Below, one piece after another: positions 529 through 20,483 of a DNA stretch of 23,456 nucleotides. Each line of letters starts with the position of its first letter. Positions within the stretch are counted from its first letter, which is position 1. The DNA lies in IMG/VR virus record IMGVR_UViG_2526164646_000006. The stretch is one strand, 5' to 3'. The notes under the pieces were generated by a model, which was not told where the DNA came from, searched no databases, and saw only the letters and a list, made by a program, of their open reading frames with translations. Source of the stretch: a virus (lineage: Duplodnaviria > Heunggongvirae > Uroviricota > Caudoviricetes). The position numbers and the translations under genes are program-made.

Positions 529-616
529 CTGTTCTCCAATGACTAGTCTAAAAACTAGTATTAAGACTATCACTTAAATAAGTGATACTGGTTGTCTGGA
601 GATTCAGGGGGCCAGT

Positions 617-1216
617 CTAGACCTTTAATGCCTCATAGAAGCAACCTTTCAGATTGTTGAACTGACGCCCATTTAGCAGGCCGTGTTCAGTCAGCATGTT
701 GTGTAATTTCCATGCCGCGTCGTTTACTTCGCTGGATGACAGGGGAGGCAACTTGTAAGTTTGGCTTACAGTTTCGGCACCATGAAGCATGGCGTCGCTC
801 CGCTCTATGCCATCCAGCGCGATTCGCAGTGCCTGAATTGTGGTAGAGCTATCGTTTGGGGCTATTCCATATCGCTCGAATACAGCTAAATGGTTGCGCA
901 TAATCTCAGGCGTAAGCTCTTTGTAAGCATAAGCAAGAGGCTCTGATGCATTATCCGGCACAACCGACGCAGGCGCGGCAGCATAAACAGGAATAACGTC
1001 CGCTTGCTCTTTATTGCTTTCATCCGTTAAAGCCCAGAATAATTTCCCGGCAGGATGTTTGAAAATATAAGCAACTGGTTCTGCTTCCAGCGATGCCAGA
1101 GCAATTCGTGCCAGTTCTTCCGCTTCTTCTGCTGGCAGTTCAACGTTGCTACCAGGTCCGTATGTTTCGCGCCACTGCTTGATTGTCAGTAGTCGCTCTT
1201 TGGTCATAGTGGTCAT
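617..1216 (-). CDS. hypothetical phage protein (199 aa) whose stop codon is supplied by the first 3 nt of IS2; probably C-terminally truncated
   Basis: ATG at 1216 directly after the upstream stop with AAGGAGAG RBS; ORF ends with TAG at 617-619, which is the start of the IS2 terminal repeat. Confidence 0.6.
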   Translation of the reverse strand: MTTMTKERLLTIKQWRETYGPGSNVELPAEEAEELARIALASLEAEPVAYIFKHPAGKLFWALTDESNKEQADVIPVYAAAPASVVPDNASEPLAYAYKELTPEIMRNHLAVFERYGIAPNDSSTTIQALRIALDGIERSDAMLHGAETVSQTYKLPPLSSSEVNDAAWKLHNMLTEHGLLNGRQFNNLKGCFYEALKV

Positions 1217-1217
1217 A

Positions 1218-1946
1218 TCACTCTCCTTTGATGCGAAAGCCAGCTGCGCTTGCTGATTCTTCATATGCGCGTTTAGCAGCGTTAAGGATTGCTGCCAGTG
1301 GCGTATAGCCGCCATCCATTCGGATTGTGTTGTGGATGCCAGCCATTGTGTTGCGCAATTTTCTGTGGCTAGCAGACAGTTCTGCTATGCGCTTCTCTGC
1401 GGCTTCCAGCTTCTCGCGCATATCGTCAACGTACTCGACCAGAGAACCGCCAGCAGGAATTTCGCACTCCTCGACCAGTTGGAAGTAGATATCAGCTGCG
1501 GCCCGTGTGTTGCTATGCCTAGCGTCGCCCATCTCACCTTCACGAAGAGCATCGCGTTCGGCGGTAAGATTGGCTATTTTGCTGTCTTTGCCTTCCAGCT
1601 CAACGCGCAGCTTCCCTACCGTTAGCGCAATTTCCTCGTTCTCCTGATCGCGGCGTTTTATGTATTGCTGGTTTCTTTCCAGCTCATCCAGCAGTGCCAG
1701 CACGGTAGCTGGACTGGCTGCGGCGATGAATTCAGCATTGGCCTGCTGTTCCATTTGGAAATCTTCATCGAAACCGCTTTCAGGATGCGCTCCTTCAATT
1801 CTGCAAATGGGAATATATCCAGCAGCCTCGCGATGAATTAGGGCATCATCACCATCAAATCGGCTCTCTCCATATTCGAGCGACCACTCACCACACGTTG
1901 CTTTCTCTGCCTTGGCACGCAGTGCCTGATAGTCAATCTTGCTCAC
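1218..1946 (-). CDS. coiled-coil protein, possibly Ead/Ea22-like
   Basis: GTG at 1946 preceded by AGGAGG with 7-nt spacer; 242 codons; coiled-coil rich; family assignment from recall only. Confidence 0.5.
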   Translation of the reverse strand: MSKIDYQALRAKAEKATCGEWSLEYGESRFDGDDALIHREAAGYIPICRIEGAHPESGFDEDFQMEQQANAEFIAAASPATVLALLDELERNQQYIKRRDQENEEIALTVGKLRVELEGKDSKIANLTAERDALREGEMGDARHSNTRAAADIYFQLVEECEIPAGGSLVEYVDDMREKLEAAEKRIAELSASHRKLRNTMAGIHNTIRMDGGYTPLAAILNAAKRAYEESASAAGFRIKGE

Positions 1947-2166
1947 TGTTTGCCTCCTTTGCTCGCTGATTCCACTCTGCTCTAACCTCTGAATAAAAAA
2001 TCGCGCAGTCATTTCCAGGCGCTGCATATTTGCTACCAGATTGAGCGCGACACGTACCGCATCGAACGAAATAGAATCGACCGCCAGAGCCATATTCAGG
2101 GTGATCTGCTTCGCTGGCAACGTGCGCTGCACCGCCACAGAATGGACATGGTAGTAGGTTGCTCAT
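1933..2166 (-). CDS. Lar-family restriction-alleviation-like small zinc-ribbon protein
   Basis: Translation [12 protein letters not shown]...CGTC... with paired Cys motifs; start ATG overlaps upstream stop as ATGA at 2163-2166. Confidence 0.55.
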   Translation of the reverse strand: MSNLLPCPFCGGAAHVASEADHPEYGSGGRFYFVRCGTCRAQSGSKYAAPGNDCAIFYSEVRAEWNQRAKEANSEQD

Positions 2167-2723
2167 GAATGCACTCCCTTGTGAAGCTGTTCCGCACAAT
2201 GCAGCAGGGCGTCAGTCGCCTCTTTCACCGTAACGCAGTCGCCATCGTCCAGCCCGGACACCGACGCGTGCTTAACGAACGCCGCGCAAAGGTCATCAAA
2301 CGCCTTAGCCCGGACTTCAGTCAGGAAAGCATCGGTGGCTGGGGTGTCTGATTGCATAGACTTTGCGCGATAGTCATTCCACCCTCTTGCATACATGGGA
2401 TTAACTTGCACTCCATCTTTTACGCAATATGCCTGCCCTCCACGGTTGATAACCTTGATTTCGTCCATAGCGCCAGACTTCAGCCCCGCATTCTCCGCTG
2501 CCAGTGCCGAAAACTTCTCGTGTGCCAACTTAACAGCCGAATCAGCCTGCTTAATTGACTCAATCGCTTTCTGTTGGTCTTCGGCCAGCGCCAAAATCTT
2601 GGCCTCCGCTTCAGCAAATTTACGCACCAGATATTCAGCGTTTGTTTCGTTAACATTTAAATCTCGTGGGATGCATTTACCTTTCAGAAAACCATCCATC
2701 TCAATTAGTGACATTTGTTTCAT
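2163..2723 (-). CDS. hypothetical protein (186 aa)
   Basis: Open frame starting [11 protein letters not shown]...; ATG overlaps upstream stop (ATGA at 2720-2723). Confidence 0.6.
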
Positions 2724-2902
2724 TTCTTCCCACTCCGCCACATCGCATTCAGATATTTGTTTTGATTCACTGATGGAAACGAGTTTCGCTTAAGCAATTC
2801 CTCTCTCGATGGCATTGGCTTTACGCGTTGGCGAATAATCATTTCTGCCGGAAGAATGCCGGGATTGTATGCAAGTCCTCTCATGGTAAATTCCTCAGTC
2901 AT
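2720..2902 (-). CDS. small hypothetical protein (60 aa)
   Basis: ATG at 2902 overlapping end of upstream gene; no clear RBS; likely translationally coupled. Confidence 0.35.
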
Positions 2903-3191
2903 TACTGATAGCGCCATAGCGTGATCGATAATTACGCAGACGCGGGTCGATATATTCAGGGAAGTGGGTATATGTGGCTTTGCGGAATGGTCGGATTGAT
3001 GTCTGGTAAATTCGCTCGCGTTCTTCTTTCTCTGCAAGCCATATACAGTGGCGAAATTCCTTTTCCTCTTTCGTTTCCTGCGGTAGCGACATTATCCGAT
3101 CGTAGTTTTTTCTGAATTTATCCAGCACCTCCGATACGGAATTGCCGGAACAGCGGCGCGGGTCATCCGCACCATACAGAGGCGCTGGCAT
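2895..3191 (-). CDS. hypothetical protein (98 aa)
   Basis: ATG at 3191 with AGGAG RBS 6 nt upstream. Confidence 0.55.
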
Positions 3192-3207
3192 GTTTTTCTC
3201 CTGTTGA

Positions 3208-3756
3208 TTATTTAGCTAACTTTTTCCAGATCGCTGAAACGTATTTGGCTTGGTGAATGGCATCATCAAGAGCGTTGTGGCGAGTTCCTTTGAATGGCAT
3301 ATCTCGCTTAGGGTCGAATCCTATTGCCTTCCCAAGTTCGACGATTGTTCTTACGTCGCGGTCATTCCACCACTGCCACGGAACTGGCTGCCCTGTCAGC
3401 GAATAACTGTTGCGGAGAATAACGCAGTCAAATGATGCTCCATTCCCCCAAACCTGAACGAATTTGTGGTTAGCGTTCTTTATGATGAATTCAGATAACC
3501 ATGAAAGAGCCGTTGAAAGCTCCTGAGTGTTGCTGGTTAGCGATTTCCTGGCTTCTTCACTCTGTTCCAGCCACCATAAAATCGTTGAAGCGTCAGGACG
3601 CGCTCGATATCGCATTGATGATTCAAGCGAGATATTTACCGAGAACTCTTCTCCTGTTTCTCCGGTATTCGGGTCAAAGAATACCGCCCCAATAGAAATA
3701 ACTGGCGCGTATGGCCCGTTGCCCATTGTTTCAAGGTCAACCATCAAGTGATTCAT
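3208..3756 (-). CDS. DnaQ-like DEDDh 3'-5' exonuclease
   Basis: Motifs DLETMG, FD and HNALDDA in the translation; sits beside SSB and the annealase. Confidence 0.75.
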   Translation of the reverse strand: MNHLMVDLETMGNGPYAPVISIGAVFFDPNTGETGEEFSVNISLESSMRYRARPDASTILWWLEQSEEARKSLTSNTQELSTALSWLSEFIIKNANHKFVQVWGNGASFDCVILRNSYSLTGQPVPWQWWNDRDVRTIVELGKAIGFDPKRDMPFKGTRHNALDDAIHQAKYVSAIWKKLAK

Positions 3757-3764
3757 GTAAGTCC

Positions 3765-4280
3765 TTAAATTGCGTGAATAGCGTGACGAGGGAAGGGGAG
3801 AGTTACTGGTGCAAAGGGGATATCGTCGTCAAAATCCATAGGTGGTTCGCTGTGATTTCCCTGCTGCTGAGGTTGCTGTCTTTGTTGCTGACCATTATTT
3901 CGCTGAGGTGAAGACTGTTCATTGCCTCCTTGCTTGCCACCAAGCATTTGCATGGTTCCACCAACGCCCACGATGACTTCGGTAGTGAACCGATCCTGTC
4001 CGCTTTGATCCTGCCATTTTCTTGTCCGCAATTTGCCTTCAAGATAAACCTCAGAGCCTTTTCGCAGATATTCGCTGGCAATTTCTGCCAGTTTCCCGCT
4101 CATTACCACGCGGTGCCACTCCGTCTGCTCCTTTTGCTCTCCAGTTTTCTTATCACGCCATTGTTCTGACGTAGCAACGGTAAGGTTTGCAAATGCCGTT
4201 CCTGATGGTGAATATCTGATTTCTGGATCATGCCCAAGGCGACCAATAATGATCACCTTATTTACGCCTCTGCTTGCCAT
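3765..4280 (-). CDS. ssb: single-stranded DNA-binding protein with 15-residue extension after the DDDIPF tail
   Basis: OB-fold SSB N-terminus, Gly/Gln-rich linker, [10 protein letters not shown] followed by [15 protein letters not shown] before the TAA at 3765-3767. Confidence 0.9.
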
Positions 4281-4988
4281 TTATGCCGCCTGTTTTAGTT
4301 CGTTAACTCTGATGTTCATTACCTGAACGCATTTAGCCTGCGCCTCCTCGTTGCCAGCCATTAATTGCCAGTCACGCTGATAACGCTCGATGAGTTTTTT
4401 CTTGTCAGTTTCTGTTGACGCATAATCGCTGAAGTCTTTCAGGATTTGTTCGCAGTCAACCGATGGAGATTTCTGGTTGGTATTTTCTGGTGATGGTTTG
4501 TTATCTGATGCTGGGATTGCCCATCCCGGCAGCGATGGAGGGAGCCAGTAAAATCCTGTTCCATCCTTGAGTTTTGCCCTGTGCCATCCCTGCTTTTTAT
4601 CGAGAGATGTTTGTGCAAAACCTTCCTCAAGGTTATACAGATACCGACCGATCCCCCACTGAACGGCAGCGCGCTTCATTGCACCGGAACGACCACCTTT
4701 GACGGCTTCTACCTGCGTGTTTTCAGCAGCATCCCATTTGGTTACCCATTCGGAATCAATCCTGATTGATATGCCGCATTCAACGCCTCCGTTGTTGGGA
4801 ATATCGCGGTATTCATTGCGCCATCCTGCTTTGCCGCAAACATCGTCCAGGCGTTTCATGATTGCCCGGTTCGTGACATAAGCCAGCACCATAGCCCACA
4901 CTTTGCCATCGCGTGTTTTACCGCTTTGCTGTATTCGCCATTCGATATCTTCAGGGCTGAATGGCTTATCGAATTTATTCAAATCCAT
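4281..4988 (-). CDS. Rad52/22-family single-strand annealing recombinase
   Basis: 235 aa; central region resembles Rad52-type annealases; GAGGTGA RBS; stop abuts ssb start. Confidence 0.65.
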   Translation of the reverse strand: MDLNKFDKPFSPEDIEWRIQQSGKTRDGKVWAMVLAYVTNRAIMKRLDDVCGKAGWRNEYRDIPNNGGVECGISIRIDSEWVTKWDAAENTQVEAVKGGRSGAMKRAAVQWGIGRYLYNLEEGFAQTSLDKKQGWHRAKLKDGTGFYWLPPSLPGWAIPASDNKPSPENTNQKSPSVDCEQILKDFSDYASTETDKKKLIERYQRDWQLMAGNEEAQAKCVQVMNIRVNELKQAA

Positions 4989-5087
4989 AATTCACCTCAG
5001 AATGGACATGGCCCAAGGAAATAACGCTGGTTTAATACTTCGACTCTGGACAAATTAAGGCATACCCGCATTCCTTCGCGGTCACCA

Positions 5088-5246
5088 TTATGGCGATACC
5101 AGAGAGCTTTCTGCGTGTACATGCGTCTCTGTAACTTGCTCTCCTTCACTGTGGTTGCAAGTGACATGAATATCTCCTTCGTTACCGATTAATTCTTTCA
5201 TATGACGAATGAATTCTTCGTCTGACCAGTTATCTGTAAAACTCAT
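5088..5246 (-). CDS. small hypothetical protein (52 aa)
   Basis: ATG at 5246 overlaps the Kil-like stop (ATGA). Confidence 0.3.
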   Translation of the reverse strand: MSFTDNWSDEEFIRHMKELIGNEGDIHVTCNHSEGEQVTETHVHAESSLVSP

Positions 5247-5395
5247 TTCCTGCGACACCACGGAAGGTTGATAGCTGATTTCATCGCTTTATTTGCTTCA
5301 AGCCACATTTTTGAATCACCAATAAATCTGGCTATTACTGCTTTGTTCTGTGCAGCACGAAGCATCTGATGATTTATGGCTATTTCATTGCGCAT
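5243..5395 (-). CDS. kil: Kil-like small protein (50 aa)
   Basis: Translation MRNEIAINHQMLRAAQNKAVIARFIGDSKMW... with position immediately downstream of cIII. Confidence 0.45.
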   Translation of the reverse strand: MRNEIAINHQMLRAAQNKAVIARFIGDSKMWLEANKAMKSAINLPWCRRK

Positions 5396-5511
5396 AATAA
5401 GACCTCAACTCTTTTCCATCCGTCACGTAATTTACGGGTGATTCGTTCAAGTAAAGATTCATTTAGTTGGAAGGCACCCATGCGAGCGCCTCCCGCGATT
5501 GCGTAAATCAT
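5380..5511 (-). CDS. cIII: CIII-like small protein (43 aa)
   Basis: Contains ESLLERITRKLRDGWKR, matching the lambda CIII core as recalled; AAGGAA RBS. Confidence 0.7.
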   Translation of the reverse strand: MIYAIAGGARMGAFQLNESLLERITRKLRDGWKRVEVLLCAMK

Positions 5512-5535
5512 GGGTGGTTCCTTATGTTGGTTTTA

Positions 5536-6504
5536 TTAGTAGGTTATTTTTGTTGCGAATACTTCGCCTTTTACGATGGCTGTTATGATATTTTTAGCAA
5601 CATCTTCTGATGCACCAACCTTGATAAGGTCAGCAAGTATTTTGTTATTTACTTCTTTCCGGTGAGCTTTATCCTTTGCTCTACGCTCTTCTTCTTCCTT
5701 GATTCTTTTTTCTTCTGCTATTCTGGCTTGCTCTTTTGCTTCAGCATCGCGACGGATTCGTTCAGCCTCCTCCTGTGCTTTTCTGCGTTCTGCTTCAATT
5801 GCTGCCTGCTTTTCTCTTTCAGCTCGTTCTGCTGCCTCTTTTGCTTCGCGCTGTGCTCGCTGCTCGGCTTCAATGCGTTCACGCTCTGCACGTTCCGCTG
5901 CGGCCTTAGCTTCTGCTTCTCGCCTTGCTGCTGCTTCAATTTCGGCTTTTGCCTTTGCTTCGGCTTCTGCTCTGGCTTTCTCTTCAGCTTCTCTTTTTAA
6001 GCGTTCTTCATGCTCTCGCTTTTCCTGCTCCGCTTTGAGTCTTGCCTCTTCTCTTTGGCGGTCAAATTCGCGATCCATCAAAATAGCTATTTCATGGTCA
6101 GACTCAATTTGCTTTGCGAGAGCTTCAGCTGCTGCCTTAGCTTCTTCTTCGGCTTTAATCCGCGCCTGTTCTTCCTCATAATCAGTAAGAGGCTGGCGCG
6201 CCTTGGCTTTCAGTTCATCAAGGCGATCGCGCACTGTCTTGCGGTTAGCATCAATTAGCTTTGGAATTTCCTTCAGTTCAGCAACAAGGTCTTTGCCAAG
6301 ACCATCGAGATATGTTTTCGTCTGCGCAACTTTATACGCCAGAGAAGCGATCTCCTTTCTGCCCTTTGCCGTTGTGATATCAGGCACAAAGGACATAACT
6401 TCACGTTCAACCTTTTGAAGGATTTCTTCAATCTGGTCGGCAGACTGAAATACAGTCATTGCATTTGCTTTTTCAATAACAACTAAATCTGTTACTTCAC
6501 TCAT
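5536..6504 (-). CDS. charged coiled-coil protein with E/A/K/R-rich low-complexity core (322 aa)
   Basis: ATG at 6504 with GGAGGA RBS; long AEAKAKAE/ERAERE repetitive segment. Confidence 0.6.
   Translation of the reverse strand: MSEVTDLVVIEKANAMTVFQSADQIEEILQKVEREVMSFVPDITTAKGRKEIASLAYKVAQTKTYLDGLGKDLVAELKEIPKLIDANRKTVRDRLDELKAKARQPLTDYEEEQARIKAEEEAKAAAEALAKQIESDHEIAILMDREFDRQREEARLKAEQEKREHEERLKREAEEKARAEAEAKAKAEIEAAARREAEAKAAAERAERERIEAEQRAQREAKEAAERAEREKQAAIEAERRKAQEEAERIRRDAEAKEQARIAEEKRIKEEEERRAKDKAHRKEVNNKILADLIKVGASEDVAKNIITAIVKGEVFATKITY
5607..6117 (-). repeat. imperfect short tandem repeats encoding the E/A/K/R-rich segment
   Basis: Recurrent gcttctgc/ttcggcttc-type units on the plus strand; produces low-complexity shadow ORFs in other frames. 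Confidence 0.5.
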
Positions 6505-6514
6505 ATATCCTCCG

Positions 6515-6545
6515 TCAAAAAAATTGCCCTCACACTGGAGGGCAA
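6515..6545 (-). terminator. intrinsic terminator just upstream of the coiled-coil gene
   Basis: Minus-strand 8-bp stem (6524-6531 / 6538-6545) with 6-nt loop followed by a U-run (plus-strand A-run 6515-6523). Confidence 0.5.
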
Positions 6546-6679
6546 AGAAGATTTCCAATAATCAGAACAAGTCGGCTCCTGTTTAGTTACGAGCGACATT
6601 GCTCCGTGTATTCACTCGTTGGAATGAATACACAGTGCAGTGTTTATTCTGTTGTTTATGCCAAAAATAAAGGCCACCG

Positions 6680-6880
6680 TCAGGCAGCCTTGTTGTTCAG
6701 TTTACCAAGTTCTCTGGCAATCATTGCCGTCGTTCGTATTGCCCATTTATCGACATATTTCCCATCTTCCATTACAGGAAACATTTCTTCAGGCTTAACC
6801 ATGCATTCCGATTGCAGCTTGCATCCATTGCATCGCTTGAATTGTCCACACCATTGATTTTTATCAATGGTCGTAGTCAT
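6680..6880 (-). CDS. ral: Ral restriction-alleviation protein
   Basis: 66-aa translation MTTTIDKNQWCGQFKRCNGCKLQSECMVKPEEMFPVMEDGKYVDKWAIRTTAMIARELGK matches lambda Ral as recalled. Confidence 0.9.
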   Translation of the reverse strand: MTTTIDKNQWCGQFKRCNGCKLQSECMVKPEEMFPVMEDGKYVDKWAIRTTAMIARELGKLNNKAA

Positions 6881-6950
6881 ACGGATAGTCCTGGTATTGT
6901 TCCATCACATCCTGAGGATGCTCTTCGAACTCTTCAAATTCTTCTTCCAT
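6864..6950 (-). CDS. small acidic ORF (28 aa) between N and ral
   Basis: MEEEFEEFEEHPQDVMEQYQDYPYDYDH; stop overlaps ral start. Confidence 0.4.
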   Translation of the reverse strand: MEEEFEEFEEHPQDVMEQYQDYPYDYDH

Positions 6951-6958
6951 ATATCACC

Positions 6959-7285
6959 TCAAATAAGTGGTTTGCTGCCTAATTTCATTTTCTGGCGACC
7001 AACACAAGTCACACCCATTTCACTGCGTGGCTTGCTGTACCATGTGCGCTGATTCTTGCGCTCAATACGCTGCAGGTTGCTTTCAATCTGTTCGTGGTAT
7101 TCAGCCAGCACCGTAAGGTCTATCGGATTCAGTGCGCTTTCTACTCGTGATTTCGGTTTGCGATTCAGCGAGAGAATAGGGCGGTTAACTGGTTTTGCGC
7201 TTACCCCAACCAACAGGGGATTTGCTGCTTTCCATTGAGCCTGTTTCTCTGCGCGACGTTCGCGGCGGCGTGTTTGAGAGTCCAT
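6959..7285 (-). CDS. N: N transcription antitermination protein
   Basis: 108 aa; MDSQTRRRERRAEKQAQWKAANPLL... arginine-rich motif and near identity to lambda N as recalled; GAGGA RBS. Confidence 0.95.
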   Translation of the reverse strand: MDSQTRRRERRAEKQAQWKAANPLLVGVSAKPVNRPILSLNRKPKSRVESALNPIDLTVLAEYHEQIESNLQRIERKNQRTWYSKPRSEMGVTCVGRQKMKLGSKPLI

Positions 7286-7326
7286 ATATCATCCTCAGAT
7301 AAATGGCCCCTCAGCGGGGCCGACAG

Positions 7327-7455
7327 TTATTGGCAGGTTGCGTACTTGCTGATGCAGGAGAAGATTTCCACGATTCGCGTCATTGTTGTTTCAGGACGCT
7401 TTGCTTCATCACGCATTGACTTCAACCAAGCCATAAAGTGTTCGTTATGTTTCAT
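7327..7455 (-). CDS. small ORF (42-44 aa) in the N leader
   Basis: ATG at 7455 six nt after AGGAG (second ATG at 7461); ends 40 nt before N. Confidence 0.3.
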   Translation of the reverse strand: MKHNEHFMAWLKSMRDEAKRPETTMTRIVEIFSCISKYATCQ

Positions 7456-7473
7456 GTTCATCTCCTGTCAGTT

Positions 7474-7752: not shown

Positions 7753-7797
7753 CTCACCTTCATGGTGGTCAGTGCGTCCTGCTGATGGCTTAAAATT

Positions 7798-7914: not shown

Positions 7915-9267
<1,353 letters not shown>

Positions 9268-9383: not shown

Positions 9384-9665
9384 ATGGGTACTATTGCAAC
9401 TAAAAGCAAGAAAGCGGCTCGCATCGAGTCAGCCTTGCTGAACAAACTGGCACTGATGGGGCAGAAGACATTCGCTCGAGCAATGGGGGTTCCTGAATAT
9501 CAGGTAAGCCGATGGAAGAATGGTTTCTTCTCGCAGGTAAGCATGATGCTTGCTGTTCTGGAATACGGAATCGAAGACGATGAAATGGCTGAATTGACTA
9601 AGCGGCTTGCCGATTACCTGACAAAAGAAAAAGCCCCGAAGAACGGCGAATTCTTCGAGGCCTAA
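9384..9665 (+). CDS. cII: CII transcriptional activator
   Basis: [11 protein letters not shown]...SRWK...[10 protein letters not shown] resembles lambda CII; AAGGA RBS. Confidence 0.9.
9621..9661 (-). terminator. possible oop-type antisense terminator at the cII 3' end
   Basis: Minus-strand 11-bp stem with one mismatch (9633-9643 / 9651-9661) followed by a U-run (plus A-run 9621-9632). Confidence 0.4.
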
Positions 9666-9699: not shown

Positions 9700-9846
9700 A
9701 TGACAAAACAACTCAGTCCTTACCAGGACAAAATTCACAAACACATACTACGTGATCGCTTCCTGTCCAGCTTCAAGCAGCATGGTCGATTCCGGGCTGA
9801 GTTGGAAAAAGTGAAGCTGATGCAGAAGGAGAAAGGTCATGAGTAA
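9700..9846 (+). CDS. small ORF (48 aa) overlapping the O start
   Basis: ATG at 9700 preceded by GGGAG; basic peptide. Confidence 0.4.
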
Positions 9847-10675
9847 TCTTGCAACCGTAACACATTTAAGGCCTTCACAACGGCCTGTGGAGCGTCGTGT
9901 GGCAGAAGTTGAAGATGGTTATACCCGTCTTGCAAATGCCCTGTATGAAGAGCTTATCGGCGCAGATTTAACGAAAAATCAGAGCAAGGTTGCCCACGCC
10001 ATATGCCGTAAAACATACGGCTACGGTAAAAAGATGGATCGCATCTCTGATAGTCAGTTAGCTCAAATTACCAGGCTGCCAAGACAGAAGGTAAACAAGG
10101 CCAAGAATGAGCTTATCGCGATGAAGGTTATCCTTCGCGAAGGCCAGCAAATCGGGCCTAACAAGAACATCGAGGAATGGCAAATAGAAGGGTGTCACTA
10201 CTCTGGTGATAATGTCACTGCATTGGTGACAAAAAGTGTCACCAAAACAGGGACACACAAAAGAAACTATTACAAAAGAAAAAGAAATAATAAAAACACT
10301 ATGTCCGAAAGTGTTCGGACGGAGTGTGAAAAATCACATGACCGTCACGAAGAAACCGACAAGGCATTCGAGGAAATATTCTGGTGTGCAGGCATGCGGA
10401 AAGCCGGGAAGAAAAACGCAGCTTCGGCATTCAGAACACAGTTCAGGGAATGGCGTAAAACTACCAGGGGTACGGCAAGCGAGTTTGCCACGATGCTGGC
10501 AGAAGACATCGCATGCAGGAATGGTAAGCAGTTCGGATTCGACAGGTTGTTACCATCGAGCTACCTGAACGGTCAACGCTGGAACGACGAGAAGCCAGAA
10601 ACTATTCAACCACAATCCAAACCATCATCCGCAATCACCGTATCGAAAACTGGCTACGTGTTTTTCGACAGGTGA
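9839..10675 (+). CDS. O: replication initiator, lambda O-like N-terminal domain with an unrelated C-terminus
   Basis: N-terminus [13 protein letters not shown]...[32 protein letters not shown] resembles lambda O; iteron-like repeats lie inside the gene. Confidence 0.85.
10190..10300. other. putative replication origin: TGTCAC-N6-GTGACA-type iterons plus AT-rich tract
   Basis: Three palindromic ~18-bp units at 10193-10256, AT-rich run 10257-10300, inverted repeat 10303-10320. Confidence 0.5.
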
Positions 10676-10782: not shown

Positions 10783-12309
10783 ATGACGCCAAGTGAACTT
10801 AGCGACCTGCTTTGGGCGCAGGTTGACAGGGTGGCTCCGCACCTGTTGCCAAACGGCAAGAAAGAGGGGCATGAGTGGGTTGCCGGTAACGTCAATGGTG
10901 ACAAGGGAAACAGCCTTAAGGTCAACCTTAGCGGCAAGAAAAAATGGGCTGATTTCGCTGAGGGAGACGGCGGTGACATGCTTGATTTGTGGATGGCATG
11001 TCGTGGAATTAACCTGCATCAGGCTATGCAGGAAGCGAAAGCATTTCTCGGTATCAAGGATGACGATCACCATTTCGATGCCAAACGTGAGAAAAAATTC
11101 TCCAGACCTGATCGCAAGAAAATCGCCCGCTACGTTACCAGAACAGAATCCCATCTTGAGTACCTGCAATCGCGTGGCATATCGCCAGAAGTCGTAAAGC
11201 GCTACGAGGTTGTCAGCGGCAAGGTGTGGAATGGAGAACGAGAACTTGATGCACTGGTGCTTCCGTACAAACGCGATGGTGAGTTGTTGCAGGTCAAGCG
11301 AATCAGCACTGAGCGCCCGGACGGGAAGAAAGTCATTATGGCAGAAGGTGATTGCGAACCTTGTCTGTTCGGATGGCAGGCTCTGGACGCTGGCGTGAGG
11401 GCGGTTGTACTTTGCGAAGGCGAAATTGATTGTATGAGCTATGCGCAATACGGCATCTCGGCGTTATCCGTGCCGTTTGGTGGAGGGAAAGGCGCTAAGC
11501 AACAGTGGATTGAGTTTGAGTACCACAACCTCGACAGGTTTGAGGAAATATTCATCTCGATGGACGTTGATGATGTTGGTCGTGAAGCCGCAAGGGAAAT
11601 CGCAAGCCGACTCGGTGAACATCGTTGCCGTCTTGTTACTCTGCCGTACAAAGACATCAACGAATGCCTGATGAACGGTGTTACCGAGGATGAAATCTGG
11701 CAGTACATCGGCACGGCATCCTACTTTGATCCTGAAGAACTCTACAGCGCGCGAGAGTTTTACCAGGACACTATCAACGCTTTCTACGGCAAGCAGCAGT
11801 ATCTGTTTAATCCACCGTGGGAATCTCTGGCAGATAAATTCCAGTTTCGTGAGGCCGAGTTGACGCTGGTCAATGGTGTGAACGGTCACGGAAAAACGGA
11901 GGTTGTCGGGCATATGGCACTTGAGGCAATGCGTCAGGGTGTGAAGACGTGCATCGCGTCACTTGAGCTGAAGCCTGGTATTCTCCTTAAGCGCCTTACC
12001 CGTCAGGCGACGTGCTGCAAGATGCCGCCAGTGCTGGAAATTGACTCTGCATTTAAATTTTATGACGAAAGACTTTGGGTGTTTGGCCTGACTGGAACGG
12101 CGAAAGCCGACAGGCTGATCGAAATATTCGACTACGCTCGCCGCCGATACGGCATCCAGTTATTCATCATCGACAGCCTGATGAAATGCGGCATAGGTGA
12201 CGATGACTATAACGGGCAGAAAGCATTTGTTGACTCGATTTGTGACTTCAAAAACAAACAAACTCCCACGTCATTCTCGTTACTCACTCCAGAAAAGGAG
12301 ATAGCGAAG
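10783..12309 (+). pseudogene. bifunctional primase-helicase (Toprim + SF4 RecA-fold helicase, T7 gp4-like), 5' portion; frameshifted near 12262-12268 and cut by IS911
   Basis: Toprim motifs CEGEID...DVDD; Walker A GVNGHGKT; Walker B LFIIDSL; downstream motif [11 protein letters not shown] is only readable in the -1 frame. Confidence 0.85.
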
Positions 12310-12350
12310 TGAAGTGGCACACTGAATTTGGCCACCTGAACAGAGGTGAT

Positions 12351-13549
<1,199 letters not shown>

Positions 13550-13557
13550 CCACTTCA

Positions 13558-13913
13558 AAGAAAAACCAACCGGGAAAATGGACGTAAAAGGCTCTGGAGC
13601 GATAACAGACCTGACAGACAACCTTTTTATCATCTGGCGTAACAAGGCTCGCGAGAGAGCGTTACAGAGAGTTCAGAGTGGTGAAAAGATGTCAGAGAAG
13701 GACGAACAGCTACTGGCATCTCCGGCATCTGTTTTGATGCTTGAAAAACAACGTAACGGCGAAGGTTGGGAAGGTGGTGTCCCGTTGTTCCTTGACGAGC
13801 AATCGCACCAGTTCCTGCAACTTGAATCAGGATCGCCTTATAGCTACATCGCCAATATGCCGAAATCGGAATATGACGAGGCGTGGCGACAGGAAAACGT
13901 GACGGAGTATTAA
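13558..13913 (+). pseudogene. primase-helicase 3' portion (helicase C-terminal motifs) downstream of IS911
   Basis: EKPTGKMDVKGSGAITDLTDNLFIIWRNK...LEKQRNGE aligns with the gp4/DnaB helicase H3/H4 region and joins the pre-insertion frame across the duplication. Confidence 0.8.
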
Positions 13914-13975: not shown

Positions 13976-13989
13976 GGGGAGAGTAAATC

Positions 13990-14196
13990 GTGGCTGAGCT
14001 GATTTTCTCTGCATTGAGGCTTCTCGGTGCGTCGTGGATGGTGGTGACGTTCATTGTGATTGCCAGCAGTTTTATCCGGTTGGTAGGTGAAGGTAAAGAC
14101 ATGGTGGGTGTGCTTTTCGGTAGCACTCTCATGTGGGTGATTATCGGTGTTGCGCCTGTCGCTGTTGCAAAAATGGCGTGGCGTTTTGTGAGTTGA
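13990..14196 (+). CDS. small predicted membrane protein (68 aa, two hydrophobic helices)
   Basis: GTG start with GGAG-type RBS; hydrophobic segments MVVTFIVIASSFI and LMWVIIGVAPVAVA. Confidence 0.4.
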   Translation: MAELIFSALRLLGASWMVVTFIVIASSFIRLVGEGKDMVGVLFGSTLMWVIIGVAPVAVAKMAWRFVS

Positions 14197-14213
14197 ACTG
14201 AGGATAAGTATCG

Positions 14214-14528
14214 ATGGACGAATCAAGAAAGCAGTTTGAAGAAAGTTGGTTGCGACGTGGGGGCGAATCTTCAGACCTTATCCGTTACCCTGAAAATCAC
14301 CATGAAATTGGCAGCGGTAATATTGGTGGTCAATACGTGATGGACGATGTTCAAGGCCACTGGCAAACGTGGCAGGCATCGAGAGCAGCTATTGAAATTG
14401 AGCTGCAAAAGCCAAAGAAAGGCCCACTTCCCGGTGATTATCACATTGGCTATGACTCAGGTGCAGAATCACAATACGAAAGCGATGTAGAGGCCATCCG
14501 CACTGCTGGAGTCAAAGTGAAGGAGTGA
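14214..14528 (+). CDS. hypothetical protein (104 aa)
   Basis: ATG with AGGA-type RBS; stop followed 2 nt later by the next start. Confidence 0.55.
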   Translation: MDESRKQFEESWLRRGGESSDLIRYPENHHEIGSGNIGGQYVMDDVQGHWQTWQASRAAIEIELQKPKKGPLPGDYHIGYDSGAESQYESDVEAIRTAGVKVKE

Positions 14529-14530
14529 GT

Positions 14531-14695
14531 ATGAGCGCATACGAAGAAATCATGTTAGCCCTGCGATTCTTTTTCGGTGTGGAAGAAGATGAAAACGTAA
14601 ATGAGATTATCGGGCAAGACCATGACCCGATAGGGACTATTGCAGCTGCACTTGACGATTACAGGAGCGTAAATGGTGAGGAAACTAACGTTTGA
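14531..14695 (+). CDS. small acidic protein (54 aa)
   Basis: ATG at 14531 with AAGGAG RBS; overlaps ninB start. Confidence 0.4.
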   Translation: MSAYEEIMLALRFFFGVEEDENVNEIIGQDHDPIGTIAAALDDYRSVNGEETNV

Positions 14696-15116
14696 ACTAA
14701 GAAGCCCCATCCATCAGCAGAACGCCATTCAAGCTATCCAGAAAATTCTTCCAGACCCAACCAAACCAATCGTAGTAACCATTCAGGAACGCAACCGCAG
14801 CTTAGACCAAAACAGGAAGCTATGGGCCTGCTTAGGTGACGTCTCTCGTCAGGTTGAATGGCATGGGCGTTGGCTGGATGCAGAAAGCTGGAAGTGTGTG
14901 TTTACCGCAGCATTAAAGCAGCAGGACGTTGTTCCTAACCTTGCCGGGAATGGCTTTGTGGTAATAGGCCAGTCAACCAGCAGGATGCGTGTAAGCGAAT
15001 TTGCGGAGCTATTAGAGCTTATACAGGCATTCGGTACAGAGCGTGGCGTTAAGTGGTCAGACGAAGCGCGACTGGCTCTGGAGTGGAAAGCGCGATGGGG
15101 AGACCGGGCAGCATGA
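14673..15116 (+). CDS. ninB: NinB (Orf-family recombination mediator)
   Basis: Translation ...[65 protein letters not shown]... close to lambda NinB as recalled. Confidence 0.95.
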
Positions 15117-15286
15117 TGCGATGTTATCGGTGCGGTGAATGCAAAGAAGATAACCGCTTCCGACCAAATCAACCTTACTGGAATCGATGGTGTCTCCGGT
15201 GTGAAAGAACACCAACAGGGGTGTTACCACTACCGCAGGAAAAGGAGGACGTGTGGCGAGACAGCGACGAAGTATCACCGACATAA
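15113..15286 (+). CDS. ninD: NinD-like zinc-ribbon protein (57 aa)
   Basis: [32 protein letters not shown]; ATGA overlap with ninB stop. Confidence 0.65.
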
Positions 15287-15429
15287 TCTGTGAAAACTGC
15301 AAATACCTTCCAACGAAACGCTCCAGAAATAAACGCAAGCCAATCCCAAAAGAATCTGACGTAAAAACCTTCAACTACACGGCTCACCTGTGGGATATCC
15401 GGTGGCTAAGACATCGTGCGAGGAAATGA
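15253..15429 (+). CDS. ninE: NinE-like protein (58 aa, GTG start)
   Basis: [52 protein letters not shown]; AGGAGG upstream. Confidence 0.55.
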
Positions 15430-15815
15430 CAATGGATTATTCACAGTTAAGTGATTTTGAAATTAACGTGGCGGTATTCGAAGCCATTCATAACGGATCA
15501 CCGGATTACAAAGAAGGTGAGAATGGCGCGATGGTGTTTATCTCATTTGAGGGAGACATTGTAAACGGAGACGCAGTTGAAGTAGAGGTTGAGCGCGGAT
15601 CCTTTAACCCATGCGCAAACCCAGCAGACGCATGGCCGATTATCACTGAAAACAACATCAGCATAATTTTAGACAATCCCTCAATGCCGTGCGCTACAGA
15701 CAACGCAAGGGACTTGTTTGATGATGCCGGACCGAATGTTGGTGTCGCATATGACAATCCACTCCGTGCCGCCATGATTGTCTTTCTCATGATGCAGGAC
15801 GCCAATAATGCTTAG
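15426..15815 (+). CDS. hypothetical nin-region protein (129 aa)
   Basis: ATG overlaps ninE stop (ATGA). Confidence 0.55.
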
Positions 15816-15987
15816 CCCATCCCAATCCCTTCAATACCAGAAAGAAAGCGTCGAGCGGGCTTTAACGTGCGCTAACTGCGGTCAGAAGCTGCATGTGCTG
15901 GAAGTTCACATGTGTGAGCACTGCTGCGCAGAACTGATGAGCGATCCGAATAGCTCAATGTACGAGGAAGAAGACGATGGTAATTAG
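15808..15987 (+). CDS. ninF: NinF-like Cys-rich small protein (59 aa)
   Basis: [46 protein letters not shown]. Confidence 0.6.
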   Translation: MLSPSQSLQYQKESVERALTCANCGQKLHVLEVHMCEHCCAELMSDPNSSMYEEEDDGN

Positions 15988-16369
15988 CCGATACGGACAA
16001 ATAACGTTTAAACATTTTCAAGACAATCCAACATGGGCTGCTGCGGCTGGATATGACTTTAATTATTTTGATTGTCTGTCAGTCGCATGTATTGCAACTA
16101 CCAATGTTGCTAACAACATAATCGATGAATTCTTGGATTTTCCAGACTATCAGGTCAGAGAGTTGCCTGCATTTTTTGTGAAAGTATCTGTTGCTACAGC
16201 TCTGTTATTTATTTTGTTATTCGCATATCCATTGCTTGCCGTATTTGTTTATGTGAGATGCAAACACTCACAAAAGAAATACAGCGGAGAGCATACCGAT
16301 ATTACCAGCCAAAATATGCGAGTGTGGTTGAGGAGATGCCAAGAGAAATGGGGGAGACGTCATGGCTAA
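15977..16369 (+). CDS. putative membrane protein in an AT-rich segment (130 aa)
   Basis: Hydrophobic segment LPAFFVKVSVATALLFILLFAYPLLAVFVYV; competing overlapping ORF at 16258-16491, so start and extent are uncertain. Confidence 0.35.
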   Translation: MVISRYGQITFKHFQDNPTWAAAAGYDFNYFDCLSVACIATTNVANNIIDEFLDFPDYQVRELPAFFVKVSVATALLFILLFAYPLLAVFVYVRCKHSQKKYSGEHTDITSQNMRVWLRRCQEKWGRRHG

Positions 16370-16652
16370 CCTACGCAAAGAAGCGCGCGGAAGAGAATGC
16401 CAGGTACGTATTTACGGCGTATGCAATGGAAATCCTGAAACTACAGTTCTGGCACATTACCGGATGGCTGGAATTTGCGGAACTGGAATGAAGCCTGACG
16501 ACCTGATCGGGGCATGGGCTTGTAGCGCGTGTCACGATGAAATCGACCGACGCACCCATAATCTCGACAACAAAGACGCCAGACTTTACCACCTCGAAGG
16601 CGTGATCAGGACGCAGGCGATACTGCTGAAGGAGGGAAAGATTAAGCCATGA
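16362..16652 (+). CDS. YbcO-like (DUF1364) putative nuclease
   Basis: MANLRKEARGRECQVRIYGVCNGNPETTVLAHYR...WACSACHDEIDRR; GGGGAGA RBS. Confidence 0.7.
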   Translation: MANLRKEARGRECQVRIYGVCNGNPETTVLAHYRMAGICGTGMKPDDLIGAWACSACHDEIDRRTHNLDNKDARLYHLEGVIRTQAILLKEGKIKP

Positions 16653-17011
16653 ACGAATATCAGTTTGTGCTTCCATACCCGCCGTCGGTGAACACCTACT
16701 GGCGAAGACGGGGAAGCCAATACTACATCAGCGATAAAGGCCAGAAATACCGAAAAGACGTTCAGAAAATCATCCGCCAACTCAAGTTAGACATTTTCAC
16801 CAAATCACGACTCCGCATCAAAGTAATCGCAGACGTTCCAGACTCCCGCCGCCGCGACCTCGATAACATCCTGAAAGGTTTACTCGACTCACTTATCCAC
16901 GCCGGATTTGCGGAAGACGACGAGCAATTCGATGACATTCGCGTAATTCGTGGTGTGAAAGTACCAGGCGGAAGGCTTGGAATAAAAATCACCGAACTGG
17001 AGAACGCATGA
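16649..17011 (+). CDS. rusA: RusA Holliday-junction resolvase
   Basis: LPYPPSVNTYW...DRRRRDLDNILK...IKITELE matches RusA as recalled. Confidence 0.9.
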   Translation: MNEYQFVLPYPPSVNTYWRRRGSQYYISDKGQKYRKDVQKIIRQLKLDIFTKSRLRIKVIADVPDSRRRDLDNILKGLLDSLIHAGFAEDDEQFDDIRVIRGVKVPGGRLGIKITELENA

Positions 17012-17196
17012 ACGCCACAATTCAAACGATACCAGAGCTTCTTATCCAGACACGAGGAAATCAGACCGAAGTGGCGAGGATGCTTTCCTGCGCAAGAGGA
17101 ACAGTGCTCAAGTACAACCGAGACAGCAAAGGCGAGCGTCACGTAATAGTTAACGGCGTCCTGATGGTCAAACAGGGCAAAAGGGGAAGGCCATGA
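17008..17196 (+). CDS. ninH: NinH-like small DNA-binding protein
   Basis: GNQTEVARMLSCARGTVLKY HTH-like segment. Confidence 0.6.
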   Translation: MNATIQTIPELLIQTRGNQTEVARMLSCARGTVLKYNRDSKGERHVIVNGVLMVKQGKRGRP

Positions 17197-17816
17197 GACT
17201 CGAAAGCGTAGCTAAATTTCATTCGCCAAAAAGCCCGATGATGAGCGACTCACCACGGGCCACGGCTTCTGACTCTCTTTCCGGTACTGATGTGATGGCT
17301 GCTATGGGGATGGCGCAATCACAAGCCGGATTCGGAATGGCTGCATTCTGCGGTAAGCATGAACTCAGCCAGAACGACAAACAAAAGGCTATCAACTATC
17401 TGATGCAATTTGCACACAAAGTATCGGGGAAATACCGTGGTGTGGCAAAGCTCGAAGGAAATACTAAGGCAAAGGTACTGCAAGTGCTCGCAACATTCGC
17501 TTATGCGGATTATTGCCGTAGTGCCGCGACGCCGGGCGCAAGATGCAGAGATTGCCACGGTACAGGCCGTGCGGTTGATATAGCCAAAACAGAGCAGTGG
17601 GGGAGAGTTGTTGAGAAAGAGTGCGGAAGATGCAAAGGTGTCGGCTATTCAAGAATGCCAGCAAGCGCTGCATATCGCGCTGTAACGATGCTAATCCCAA
17701 ACCTTACCCAACCCACCTGGTCACGCACTGTTAAGCCGCTGTATGACGCTCTGGTGGTGCAATGCCACAAAGAAGAGTCAATCGCAGACAACATTTTGAA
17801 TGCGGTCACACGTTAG
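17193..17816 (+). CDS. Q: Q late antiterminator, lambda type
   Basis: 207-aa translation beginning MRLESVAKFHSPKSPMMSDSPRATASDSLSGTDVMAAMGMAQSQAG... essentially as recalled for lambda Q. Confidence 0.95.
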   Translation: MRLESVAKFHSPKSPMMSDSPRATASDSLSGTDVMAAMGMAQSQAGFGMAAFCGKHELSQNDKQKAINYLMQFAHKVSGKYRGVAKLEGNTKAKVLQVLATFAYADYCRSAATPGARCRDCHGTGRAVDIAKTEQWGRVVEKECGRCKGVGYSRMPASAAYRAVTMLIPNLTQPTWSRTVKPLYDALVVQCHKEESIADNILNAVTR

Positions 17817-17858
17817 CAGCATGATTGCCACGGATGGCAACATATTAACGGCATGATA

Positions 17859-17888
17859 TTGACTTTTTGAATAAAGTTGGGTAAATTT
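17859..17888 (+). promoter_or_regulatory. pR' late promoter with overlapping qut region
   Basis: TTGACT at 17859-17864, 17-nt spacer, TAAATT at 17882-17887. Confidence 0.8.
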
Positions 17889-17920
17889 GACTCAACGATG
17901 GATAAATGCACTCGTTAAAT

Positions 17921-17957
17921 AAAGCCCTGAGTTAATAGCTCGGGGCTTTTTGCGTTT
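17921..17957 (+). terminator. intrinsic terminator about 60 nt downstream of pR' (tR'-like)
   Basis: 11-bp stem with one G-U pair (17921-17931 / 17939-17949), 7-nt loop, then TTTTTGCGTTTT. Confidence 0.7.
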
Positions 17958-18249
17958 TAAGCACGACCTTTCTGAAAGCGCATCAAACCAAATACCAGAC
18001 AGACCAAAATAATCACCTTATCCGCTGTGGCTACGGTGCGGTGTGCTTTGCATAAAAGAAAACCAGCTCAATGGCTGGCTTCGTGAAAGCGGGTGGCAAG
18101 AGGTTGCGCTAACAACCTGATGCCGTTTTGCCCGTGCATATCGGTCACGAACAAATCTGATTACTAAACACAGTAGCCTGGATTTGTTCTATCAGTAATC
18201 GACCTTATTCCTAATTAAATAGAGCAAATCCCCTTATTGGGGGTAAGAC

Positions 18250-18573
18250 ATGAAGATGCCAGAAAAACATGACCTGTTAGCCGCCATTCTCGCGGCAAAG
18301 GAACAAGGCATCGGGGCAATCCTTGCGTTTGCAATGGCGTACCTTCGCGGCAGATATAATGGCGGTGCGTTTACAAAAACAGTAATCGACGCAACGATGT
18401 GCGCCATTATCGCCTGGTTCATTCGTGACCTTCTCGACTTCGCCGGACTAAGTAGCAATCTCGCTTATATAACGAGCGTGTTCATCGGCTACATCGGTAC
18501 TGACTCGATTGGTTCGCTTATCAAACGCTTCGCTGCTAAAAAAGCCGGAGTAGAAGATGGTGGAAATCAATAA
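18250..18573 (+). CDS. S: holin S with dual-start motif
   Basis: [34 protein letters not shown]...; Met1 and Met3 starts. Confidence 0.95.
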
Positions 18574-19033
18574 TCAACGTAAGGCGTTCCTCGATATGCT
18601 GGCGTGGTCGGAGGGAACTGATAACGGACGTCAGAAAACCAGAAATCATGGTTATGACGTCATTGTTGGCGGAGAGCTATTCACTGATTACTCCGATCAC
18701 CCTCGCAAACTTGTCACGCTAAACCCCAAACTCAAATCAACAGCAGCCGGACGTTACCAGCTTCTTTCCCGTTGGTGGGATGCCTATCGTAAGCAGCTTG
18801 GCCTGAAAGACTTCTCTCCGAAAAGCCAGGACGCTGTGGCACTGCAACAGATTAAGGAACGTGGCGCTTTACCGATGATTGATCGCGGTGATATCCGTCA
18901 GGCAATCGACCGTTGCAGCAATATCTGGGCTTCACTGCCGGGCGCTGGTTATGGTCAGTTCGAGCATAAGGCTGACAACCTGATTGCAAAATTCAAAGAA
19001 GCTGGCGGAACGGTCAGAGAGATTGAGGTATGA
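18557..19033 (+). CDS. R: endolysin R (lytic transglycosylase)
   Basis: [49 protein letters not shown]... Confidence 0.95.
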
Positions 19034-19467
19034 GCAGAGTCACCGAGATTATCTCCGCTCTGGTTATCTGCATCATCGTCTGCCTGTCATGGGCTGTTAA
19101 TCATTACCGTGATAATGCAATCGCCTACAAAGAGCAGCGCGATAAAGCCACATCCATCATCGCTGATATGCAGAAGCGTCAACGTGATGTAGCTGAACTC
19201 GATGCCAGATACACAAAGGAGCTTGCTGATGCTAACGCGACTATCGAAAGTCTCCGTACTGATGTCTCTGCTGGTCGTAAGCGCTTGCAAATCGCCGCCA
19301 CCTGTGCAAAGTCAACGACCGGAGCCAGCGGCATGGGCGATGGAGAAAGCCCAAGACTTACAGCAGATGCTGAACTCAATTATTACCGTCTCCGAAGTGG
19401 AATCGACAGGATAACCGCGCAGGTTAACTACCTGCAGGAATACATCAGGACGCAATGCCTTCGATGA
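19030..19467 (+). CDS. Rz: Rz i-spanin
   Basis: N-terminal membrane helix then coiled-coil; contains embedded Rz1. Confidence 0.9.
19229..19414 (+). CDS. Rz1: Rz1 o-spanin lipoprotein, embedded in Rz in the +1 frame
   Basis: AAGGAG RBS; lipobox VSAC; proline-rich mature region. Confidence 0.85.
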
Positions 19468-19607
19468 TAGCGATAATTTTACTCATCATCCTTCACATCT
19501 GGCTCTGTAGACAGGGTGGTGATCACTTCTGGAGTGAATCCAGATTAAACATCTCATTGCTGATGCTTGATATTGAGCATCTGGCGCGCGGTAAGGGGCT
19601 GCGTTGA
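19464..19607 (+). CDS. small hydrophobic ORF (47 aa) overlapping the Rz stop
   Basis: [14 protein letters not shown]... begins at ATGA overlap with Rz. Confidence 0.25.
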
Positions 19608-19848
19608 GATAAGAGCCAGTTCATTACAAAGCCTATCTACTGGTGGGCTTGATAATGAAACCGGAATTTATTCTGGGCAACCAGTTACGGCAGTACCGCG
19701 AAACAACCCAAGCCAGTAAGTGGGGAAATAACACTGGCAGCCACTGAAAGATGAACCTCCAGCCTTATGGCAAAAAAGATTCTTTGTGGTGGCGGACTGA
19801 TGGAAAGACATCCGCTGAATCGATGATAAACAAGTGGAAGAGGTTGCG

Positions 19849-20022
19849 ATGGTTTCCGTGAACAAAGATCCGAAGGAAGGCGTTGAATACATCACTGGTG
19901 CTGATGGTGTGAAAAGACCAATGGCTTATTACAAAGCGGCTGAAGAGAGGGCAAGAATAGAAAATCCCCCTAAATGCGGATCATTTTTCGACATGCTGAA
20001 TCTTCAACAATGGAAGTTGTGA
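19849..20022 (+). CDS. small hypothetical protein (57 aa)
   Basis: ATG at 19849 with AAGAGG-like RBS. Confidence 0.3.
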   Translation: MVSVNKDPKEGVEYITGADGVKRPMAYYKAAEERARIENPPKCGSFFDMLNLQQWKL

Positions 20023-20161
20023 ACAATTAACAGGTCGCTCAGGTGGCCTTTTTTATTGCCATCACAAAAGCCATTCCCTACAGAGTGGCTTTGATAATGG
20101 CTTATACCCTACACGGGATAACTTAACTGATATCCCTTTTAACGGATAAACGGAGCCAACA

Positions 20162-20404: not shown

Positions 20405-20483
20405 ACATGGCAACTCAAGGTTTCGACAACCCATCCAAATTCCGCGATGAATGGGATAAGCAAGCAGAAGGGAAATAATCAAT

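Follow-up and report, generated by a model that had tools for sequence, protein, structure and literature searches.

Background

The origin of phage lambda lies inside the gene of its own initiator. In the RefSeq genome four iterons, to which the O protein binds (PMC7466680), are found within gene O at 39034, 39054, 39078 and 39101, which corresponds to a spacing of 20/24/23 bp. A two-domain model of this protein, in which the N-terminal domain reads the iterons and the C-terminal half recruits the helicase, is established (PMC7466680, PMC8022706). According to PMC7466680, two AT-proximal iterons and the AT tract are enough for DNA unwinding and in vitro replication, and three iterons suffice in vivo and allow normal growth (citing Dodson 1986, Wickner and McKenney 1987, and Moore 1981). 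Two lambda mutants, r93 and r98, carry 24-bp deletions that remove one iteron next to the AT tract; both are origin-defective, and the O allele of r98 cannot complement (PMC6022878).

The number of iterons varies between lambdoid phages. An iteron array inside an O-family gene is also found in P22, whose record places a rep_origin inside gene 18, and in the six-iteron origins of Stx phages. The GenBank record of ES18 has a rep_origin "similar to lambda ori" in gene 59, at the stretch homologous to the one studied here. The nearest isolated relatives of our locus are Sf101, mEp043, SEN22 and vB_EcoP-720R6, with O genes that are 96-97% identical to the one described below. Their records carry no annotated origin, the Sf101 genome paper does not discuss one, and our literature search found no experimental study of the iteron type, TGTCAC-N7-GTGACA, that they have in common.

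The locus and its prophage

The window analysed here is the whole stretch of 23,456 bases, which is the complete contig AGRC01000012.1 of assembly GCA_000281795.1. It holds part of a P22-like (Lederbergvirus-type, Sf101-type) prophage. Between positions 7461 and 13983 the window is 99.4-100% identical to Shigella flexneri phage Sf101, lesions aside, and the immunity and replication block as a whole shows 99.4% identity to that phage. The remaining parts (1-7460 and 13984-23456) are mosaic with respect to Sf101, with patches of 88-98% identity and several segments without a match, and at most 64% of the window is covered by any complete E. coli genome. The gene order around the origin is cI-cro-cII-DUF2740-O-primase/helicase (Table 1).

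The O protein encoded in the window is 97% identical to the "replication protein O" of Sf101. A search of PDB sequences with this protein gave no meaningful match, the best one (E = 0.06) being unrelated. The gene is laid out as an N-terminal origin-binding domain before the repeats and a partner-specific C-terminal half after them, and the iterons begin at codon 119, at the boundary between both parts, where a lambdoid origin is expected.

Table 1 Features of the immunity and replication region in window coordinates
Feature	Position	Strand	Remarks
cI repressor, LexA/S24-type	8316-8948	minus	Full-length ORF of 210 aa; S24 peptidase and HTH domains
cro	9052-9267		
cII	9384-9665		PF05269
DUF2740 gene	9700-9846		
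O-family replication initiator gene, containing the probable origin	9839-10675	+	278 aa; Phage_rep_O (Pfam PF04492, 1.2e-37) at residues 20-114
Iteron 1	10193-10211	.	TGTCACTACTCTGGTGATA; aligns with lambda iteron 1; nearly invariant among 55 distinct homologues
Iteron 2	10213-10231	.	TGTCACTGCATTGGTGACA; best dyad of the units
Iteron 3 of the window copy	10237-10255	.	TGTCACCAAAACAGGGACA; fusion of ancestral iterons 3 and 4
O segment in a different frame from all relatives	10249-10283	+	Between the 23-bp and 1-bp deletions; from protein alignment
AT-rich tract, presumed DNA-unwinding element	10256-10303	+	48 bp; 31 A, 7 T, 6 C, 4 G
Inverted repeat, right edge of the origin	10296-10327	.	Arms 10296-10309 and 10314-10327, 86% complementary
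Primase-helicase gene, 5' part	10783-12309	+	Toprim_2 (2.8e-12); T7-gp4-like; presumed origin-loaded partner
IS911	12310-13557	+	3-bp target duplication (12307-12309 and 13558-13560); boundaries from the Sf101 alignment
Primase-helicase gene, 3' remainder	13558-13913	+	100% identical to Sf101 31312-31737

Anatomy of the putative origin

The initial annotation had proposed a likely replication origin made up of three palindromic TGTCAC-N6-GTGACA-like units, an AT-rich stretch after them and a further inverted repeat, all within an O-like coding sequence and arranged as in lambda. The three units are indeed present (10193-10255), but their spacer is N7 rather than N6: the iteron is a dyad-symmetric unit of 19 bp built as 6 + 7 + 6 (TGTCAC-N7-GTGACA). 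The units follow one another with start-to-start distances of 20 and 24 bp, that is, with the spacing of about two helical turns known from the tandem dyad iterons of lambdoid origins, and the array is one unit short. All the other elements were found as described, and all of them lie inside the Phage_rep_O gene.

When up to two mismatches are allowed, the pattern TGTCAC-N7-GTGACA occurs at four sites in the window, three of which fall inside 63 bp. None of 1000 dinucleotide-preserving shuffles contained at least three sites within 70 bp; on average, a shuffle had 0.84 sites. Since the pattern was taken from the same three units, the test is partly circular, and for the same reason the comparative evidence presented below outweighs it. 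The fourth site (10885-10903, GGTAACGTCAATGGTGACA, two mismatches) is located in the primase-helicase gene and was judged to be a chance occurrence in view of the 0.84 sites found per shuffled window.

The AT-rich, strand-asymmetric tract starts directly to the right of the last iteron, as it does in lambdoid origins. It is biased towards A on the strand shown (79% A+T, GC 20-26%, AT skew +0.73), and at 10253-10302 the GC content over 50 bp drops to 20%, a minimum undercut at only two other places in the window, near 7790 and 7848, both of which are intergenic by reading of the ORF list. The inverted repeat adjoins the right border of the tract, which is again the lambdoid layout. Its core is TCCGAA-agtg-TTCGGA (10304-10319), and as single-stranded DNA it folds with -11.9 kcal/mol (z = -6.8), a value that none of 200 shuffles equalled.

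Comparison with ori-lambda and other named origins

The resemblance to the lambda arrangement was borne out by alignment with ori-lambda. The units of the window line up with iterons 1, 2 and 4 of lambda, and 54 of 63 positions are identical in the segment that begins in the inner half of the last iteron and covers the AT-rich tract (CAAAACAGGG..ACACAAAAGA.ACTATTACAAAAGAAAAA). Both origins are located in the O gene at the domain boundary, both have 19-bp dyad iterons spaced by 20/24(/23) bp, the left part of the AT-rich tract is nearly identical, and an inverted repeat follows on the right. Nevertheless, the iterons themselves differ (ATCCCTC-N5-GAGGGA in lambda, TGTCAC-N7-GTGACA in the window), as do their number (four against three), the sequence of the right-hand inverted repeat and the N-terminal domain of the initiators, which are 36% identical overall. 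The partner is also different: P/DnaB in lambda, a gp4-like primase-helicase in the window. The locus is accordingly no lambda replicon in the strict sense of O, P and host DnaB, as its C-half is of the ES18 type and the downstream gene does not belong to PF06992.

Other phages resemble the window in other parts of the module. ES18 and epsilon34 share with it the right part of the AT-rich tract, the inverted repeat, the C-half of O and the primase-helicase partner, and the second half of their O gene is 93-95% identical at the DNA level; yet ES18 has lambda-type iterons and a lambda-type N-domain, with the mosaic junction at the border between the last iteron and the AT-rich tract. Sf101, mEp043, SEN22 and vB_EcoP-720R6 share both the iteron type and the helicase partner, and differ by their four iterons, an A6 run and an intact primase-helicase gene. 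With P22 gene 18 and the Stx-phage origins the window shares the position of the array inside an O-family gene; the iterons are different in sequence and number, and the partner of P22 is the DnaB-like gp12.

Very probably, a P22-like (Sf101-type) prophage has its lambda-type origin at this locus, in the part of O that codes for the linker; it is a derivative with three of four iterons, and its mechanism is read from homology. The proposal of a likely replication origin agrees with the homology, the conservation described below and the rep_origin annotations of related phages, but it applies to ancestry and mechanism and not necessarily to present activity. By analogy with lambda, dimers of the N-terminal domain of O would bind the 19-bp dyad iterons, wrapping or bending the DNA, and if the DNA is supercoiled the adjacent A-rich tract would be destabilised as a result; the C-half of O would then bring in the phage's own T7-gp4-like primase-helicase, encoded just downstream. 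This kind of origin is already known and the current understanding of lambdoid replication is unchanged. What the assignment provides is the origin of a widespread and unannotated replication module, that of Sf101-, mEp043- and SEN22-type phages and of E. coli genomes; the less usual point is a natural, frame-compensated iteron deletion.

Conservation among relatives

The relatives considered were 80 IMG/VR loci with aligned O proteins, plus isolated phages. The same iterons occur in all 76 loci that carry the window type of initiator, always as four units spaced by 20/24/23 bp. Among the 55 distinct sequences of these 76 loci, one of 28 third-codon positions is variable in the iteron array, compared to 44 of 113 in the upstream N-domain (Fisher p = 1.7e-4). 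Silent sites are near-invariant in the iterons and, therefore, this DNA is conserved beyond what the protein requires. Four iterons are also found in Sf101, mEp043, SEN22 and the PhiR12 phages. The Proteus phage vB_BPM-V3, in which the N-half of O is 67% identical to that of Sf101, likewise has four TGTCAC-type iterons with 20/24/23-bp spacing and the same AT-rich core. The initial annotation had named the absence of such repeats from homologous initiator genes as the observation that would speak against an origin; since the repeats are kept in these genes (the 76 loci and the Proteus phage), down to their silent sites, the origin reading withstands that comparison.

The module is present in about 170 of the 5,426 complete E. 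coli genomes. Of the 173 E. coli genomes with full query coverage, 40 of 40 among the matches listed have four-iteron spans, their length being 244-245 nt against the 221 nt of the query. The three-iteron junction had no exact match in the genome, viral and metagenome contig collections, and the three-iteron allele is known only from contig AGRC01000012.1 and the Logan assembly of SRR060746. The three-unit array is a 23-bp deletion derivative of the four-unit array of the family.

Natural exchange of initiator domains and helicase partners

The distribution of the different parts of the module follows the two domains of the initiator. TGTCAC iterons always travel with the window-type N-domain, and an N-domain of the lambda type is accompanied by lambda-type iterons irrespective of the C-half that follows. 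With the helicase partner, in turn, co-segregate the distal AT tract, the inverted repeat and the C-half of O. Thus the ES18-type C-half of Sf101 and the window is followed by a T7-gp4-like primase-helicase; in PhiR12_1 the window-type N-half and iterons are followed by a C-half of the lambda type and a P gene (PF06992, 1.9e-61); and in vB_BPM-V3 they are joined to a P22-gp18-type C-half and a DnaB-type helicase. In ES18 and the epsilon34-like loci, conversely, the iterons and the N-domain are of the lambda type and the C-half and primase-helicase of the window type. This pattern of swaps is the comparative signature to be expected of an N-domain that reads the iterons and a C-half that recruits the helicase, and the joining of a single N-domain and iteron set to a P, DnaB-type or gp4-type helicase cleanly illustrates the two-domain logic of O. 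For loci L073-L078, a third kind of partner was considered and rejected, as their downstream gene is a diverged member of the same primase-helicase family.

The mosaic joints (loci L003, L087 and L002 compared with window 10256-10290) are all located in the conserved AT-rich core ACACAAAAGA.ACTATTACAAAAGAAA. From the alignments, this core looks like a homologous-recombination joint that swaps iteron/N-domain modules between helicase partners.

Just to the right of the AT tract, the inverted repeat differs from one type of C-half to the next (window 10296-10327; L087 1620-1655; L088 1975-2000; L004 about 855-890). Its sequence is ACACTATGTCCGAA/TTCGGACGGAGTGT in the window and CCCC..TTACCCC..GGGG in P22 and the Proteus phage, and lambda has a sequence of its own. 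The dyad is kept while its sequence changes with the partner, and it might play a role in partner-specific helicase loading.

Lesions of the window copy

Base-by-base comparison with Sf101, as well as the alignments with PhiR12_1 and ET650, shows that the window has a 23-bp deletion of ancestral iteron 3. The end-points are within a 12-nt direct repeat, TGTCACCAAAAC, common to iterons 3 and 4, and the junction falls at some point of this 12-mer, which occupies 10237-10248 in the window. Apart from the iteron 3/4 pair, the homologous 5.3 kb of Sf101 contains no 12-nt direct repeat with copies within 60 bp of each other. The last unit of the window, TGTCACCAAAACAGGGACA, is identical in sequence to ancestral iteron 4. 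A second change is found 42 bp downstream, where an A6 run of the AT-rich tract has lost 1 bp (A5 at 10279-10283); 23 + 1 = 24 bp are missing in total and O stays in frame. In comparison with its relatives the linker has 8 residues fewer and 13 recoded ones: the reframed segment comprises 13 recoded codons, and a stretch of 11 residues stands for one of 19 in Sf101. A +1-frame ORF at 10236-10568 still starts with the ancestral O reading. We propose that ancestral iteron 3 was lost by deletion between the direct repeats of iterons 3 and 4, and that the slip in the A6 run would have restored the frame of O.

The same A6 to A5 change is present alone in E. coli ET650 (L005, NZ_CP100936.1, 1200-2059), which has four iterons and an O gene given in RefSeq as a frameshifted pseudogene. 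The A6 run is therefore a hotspot of slippage or miscalling. The 1-bp differences of the window are in homopolymers and could be sequencing errors; if A5 is such an error, the O gene of the window is truly frameshifted.

The helicase gene has suffered as well. The intact homologue of Sf101 contains Toprim_2, AAA_25 and DnaB_C domains and matches the T7 primase/helicase structures 5ikn/6n7i at about 1e-23. In the window, this gene is split by IS911 and, 55 bp upstream of the insertion, frameshifted by a 1-bp deletion (A4 to A3) near 12255. The deletion is either a further inactivating lesion, independent of the insertion, or a sequencing error in a homopolymer. The IS911 copy is 98.9% identical to elements annotated "IS3-like element IS911 family transposase" and its transposase ORFs (12309-12683 and 12710-13549) appear intact; IS911 is found in 4,903 of the 5,426 E. 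coli genomes. With a frameshifted and IS911-split helicase gene, a missing iteron and a recoded O linker, the window does not have the makings of an active autonomous replication module. Since the helicase gene has been knocked out twice, the module probably cannot replicate autonomously, and the window copy shows a prophage in the process of losing its replication module.

The cis site may still work if the proteins are supplied in trans, because exactly one repeat period was deleted and both the AT-proximal iteron and its junction are preserved. For the protein itself, the recoded linker poses a risk. Since lambda r93 and r98 are defective and the O of r98 is non-complementing, the window copy could also be dead both in cis and in trans. 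As in these mutants, a prophage has lost a single iteron between neighbouring repeats by a small in-frame change. The window copy differs from them in that 23 + 1 bp are lost instead of 24 bp in a single deletion, in that the missing iteron is internal, the AT-proximal one and the junction being kept, and in its natural occurrence.

Evolutionary scenarios for the lesions

In the 6.5-kb immunity and replication block, the window differs from Sf101 by only six substitutions but by four disruptive lesions, each of which lies in O/ori or in the helicase gene. These lesions may stem from selection, either against replication of the prophage or in favour of a compensated initiator, or from plain decay, and the estimates given below fall short of significance. 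That the 23-bp iteron loss and the 1-bp reframing are a natural record of selection on a prophage origin, whether as a host-selected knock-out or as a compensated viable phage, is a tentative reading to which we give a minor share of our confidence. If it were true, each version would offer a natural example of the constraints that an origin and the initiator gene it overlaps place on one another. The clustering of the lesions was considered as significant evidence of selection and rejected as such, since neither their location (about 7% by chance) nor the compensating slip (at most 12%) is more than suggestive.

One possibility is that the three-iteron origin and the reframed O worked in a live phage, in which case the 1-bp deletion would be a compensatory mutation, selected for its rescue of O after the 23-bp deletion, and the helicase lesions would have come later. 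The two deletions add up to 24 bp and restore the frame within 42 bp, although any two indels do so by chance one time in three. Four 6-nt homopolymers are present in the Sf101 block, and by a rough estimate a neutral hit of the right sign would fall on this one in at most about 12% of cases; the occurrence of the same slip alone in ET650, with a frameshifted O, nevertheless indicates a hotspot of slippage or sequencing error at this run. Lambda O tolerates deletions of four and five residues in the same linker and, according to PMC7466680, three iterons suffice for lambda. Yet the allele was found in no other genome searched, and we regard a functional, compensated origin as possible but unlikely.

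Alternatively, the loss of the iteron could be a selected knock-out of the origin, a natural counterpart of the laboratory survivors of lambda "replicative killing", Rambach's r mutants r93 and r98. The host lineage would have survived since the prophage origin could not fire, and the helicase lesions would result from the same selection. The 24-bp one-iteron deletions of r93 and r98 came from exactly such a selection (PMC6022878), the three-iteron form is in no other sequence searched, and the four disruptive lesions, set against six substitutions in the 6.5-kb block, are confined to O/ori and the helicase gene. However, the replication genes make up about half of the block and, by a rough estimate, all four lesions would fall there by chance in about 7% of cases. 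The iteron 3/4 pair, as the only close 12-nt direct repeat in the block, is also where a spontaneous deletion is expected, and the deletion preserves the phase of the array, a kind that lambda tolerates (Moore 1981, as cited in PMC7466680). Moreover, an IS insertion and frameshifts are ordinary prophage decay, and the intact cI (210 aa, S24 and HTH domains) implies a repressed prophage with little toxicity from replication. A selected knock-out thus seems rather improbable.

It is quite improbable that the differences are artefacts of assembly or sequencing, with a collapsed tandem repeat and homopolymer miscalls hiding a true locus of four iterons. Both 1-bp differences do sit in A runs and the window is a draft contig (AGRC01000012.1), but the 23-bp unit is far below the length of any read, which makes a collapse unlikely, and the independent Logan assembly of SRR060746, which may share reads with the contig, matches it without a difference over 6090 nt, the 23-bp deletion and A5 among them.

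Finally, the units do encode a repetitive stretch of peptide (VT-x-x-VTK), but the idea that the repeats are a by-product of that peptide, or of chance, with no role at the DNA level is hardly tenable, given that their silent positions are far more conserved than the flanking coding sequence, that their dyad symmetry and 20/24/23 spacing are those of lambda despite a different iteron sequence, that the last iteron and AT tract of the window have kept their DNA sequence despite a change of reading frame, and that no shuffle out of 1000 produced the cluster.

Other features of the window

A scan of the whole window against Rfam at gathering thresholds returned no family and no match to an oop-like RNA model. 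On the minus strand, an ORF of 158 aa (7915-8391) with a hydrophobic, signal-like N-terminus overlaps the 3' end of cI. This ORF is the counterpart of the hypothetical protein Sf101_0038, whose position is one where lambdoid prophages often have exclusion genes expressed in the lysogen.
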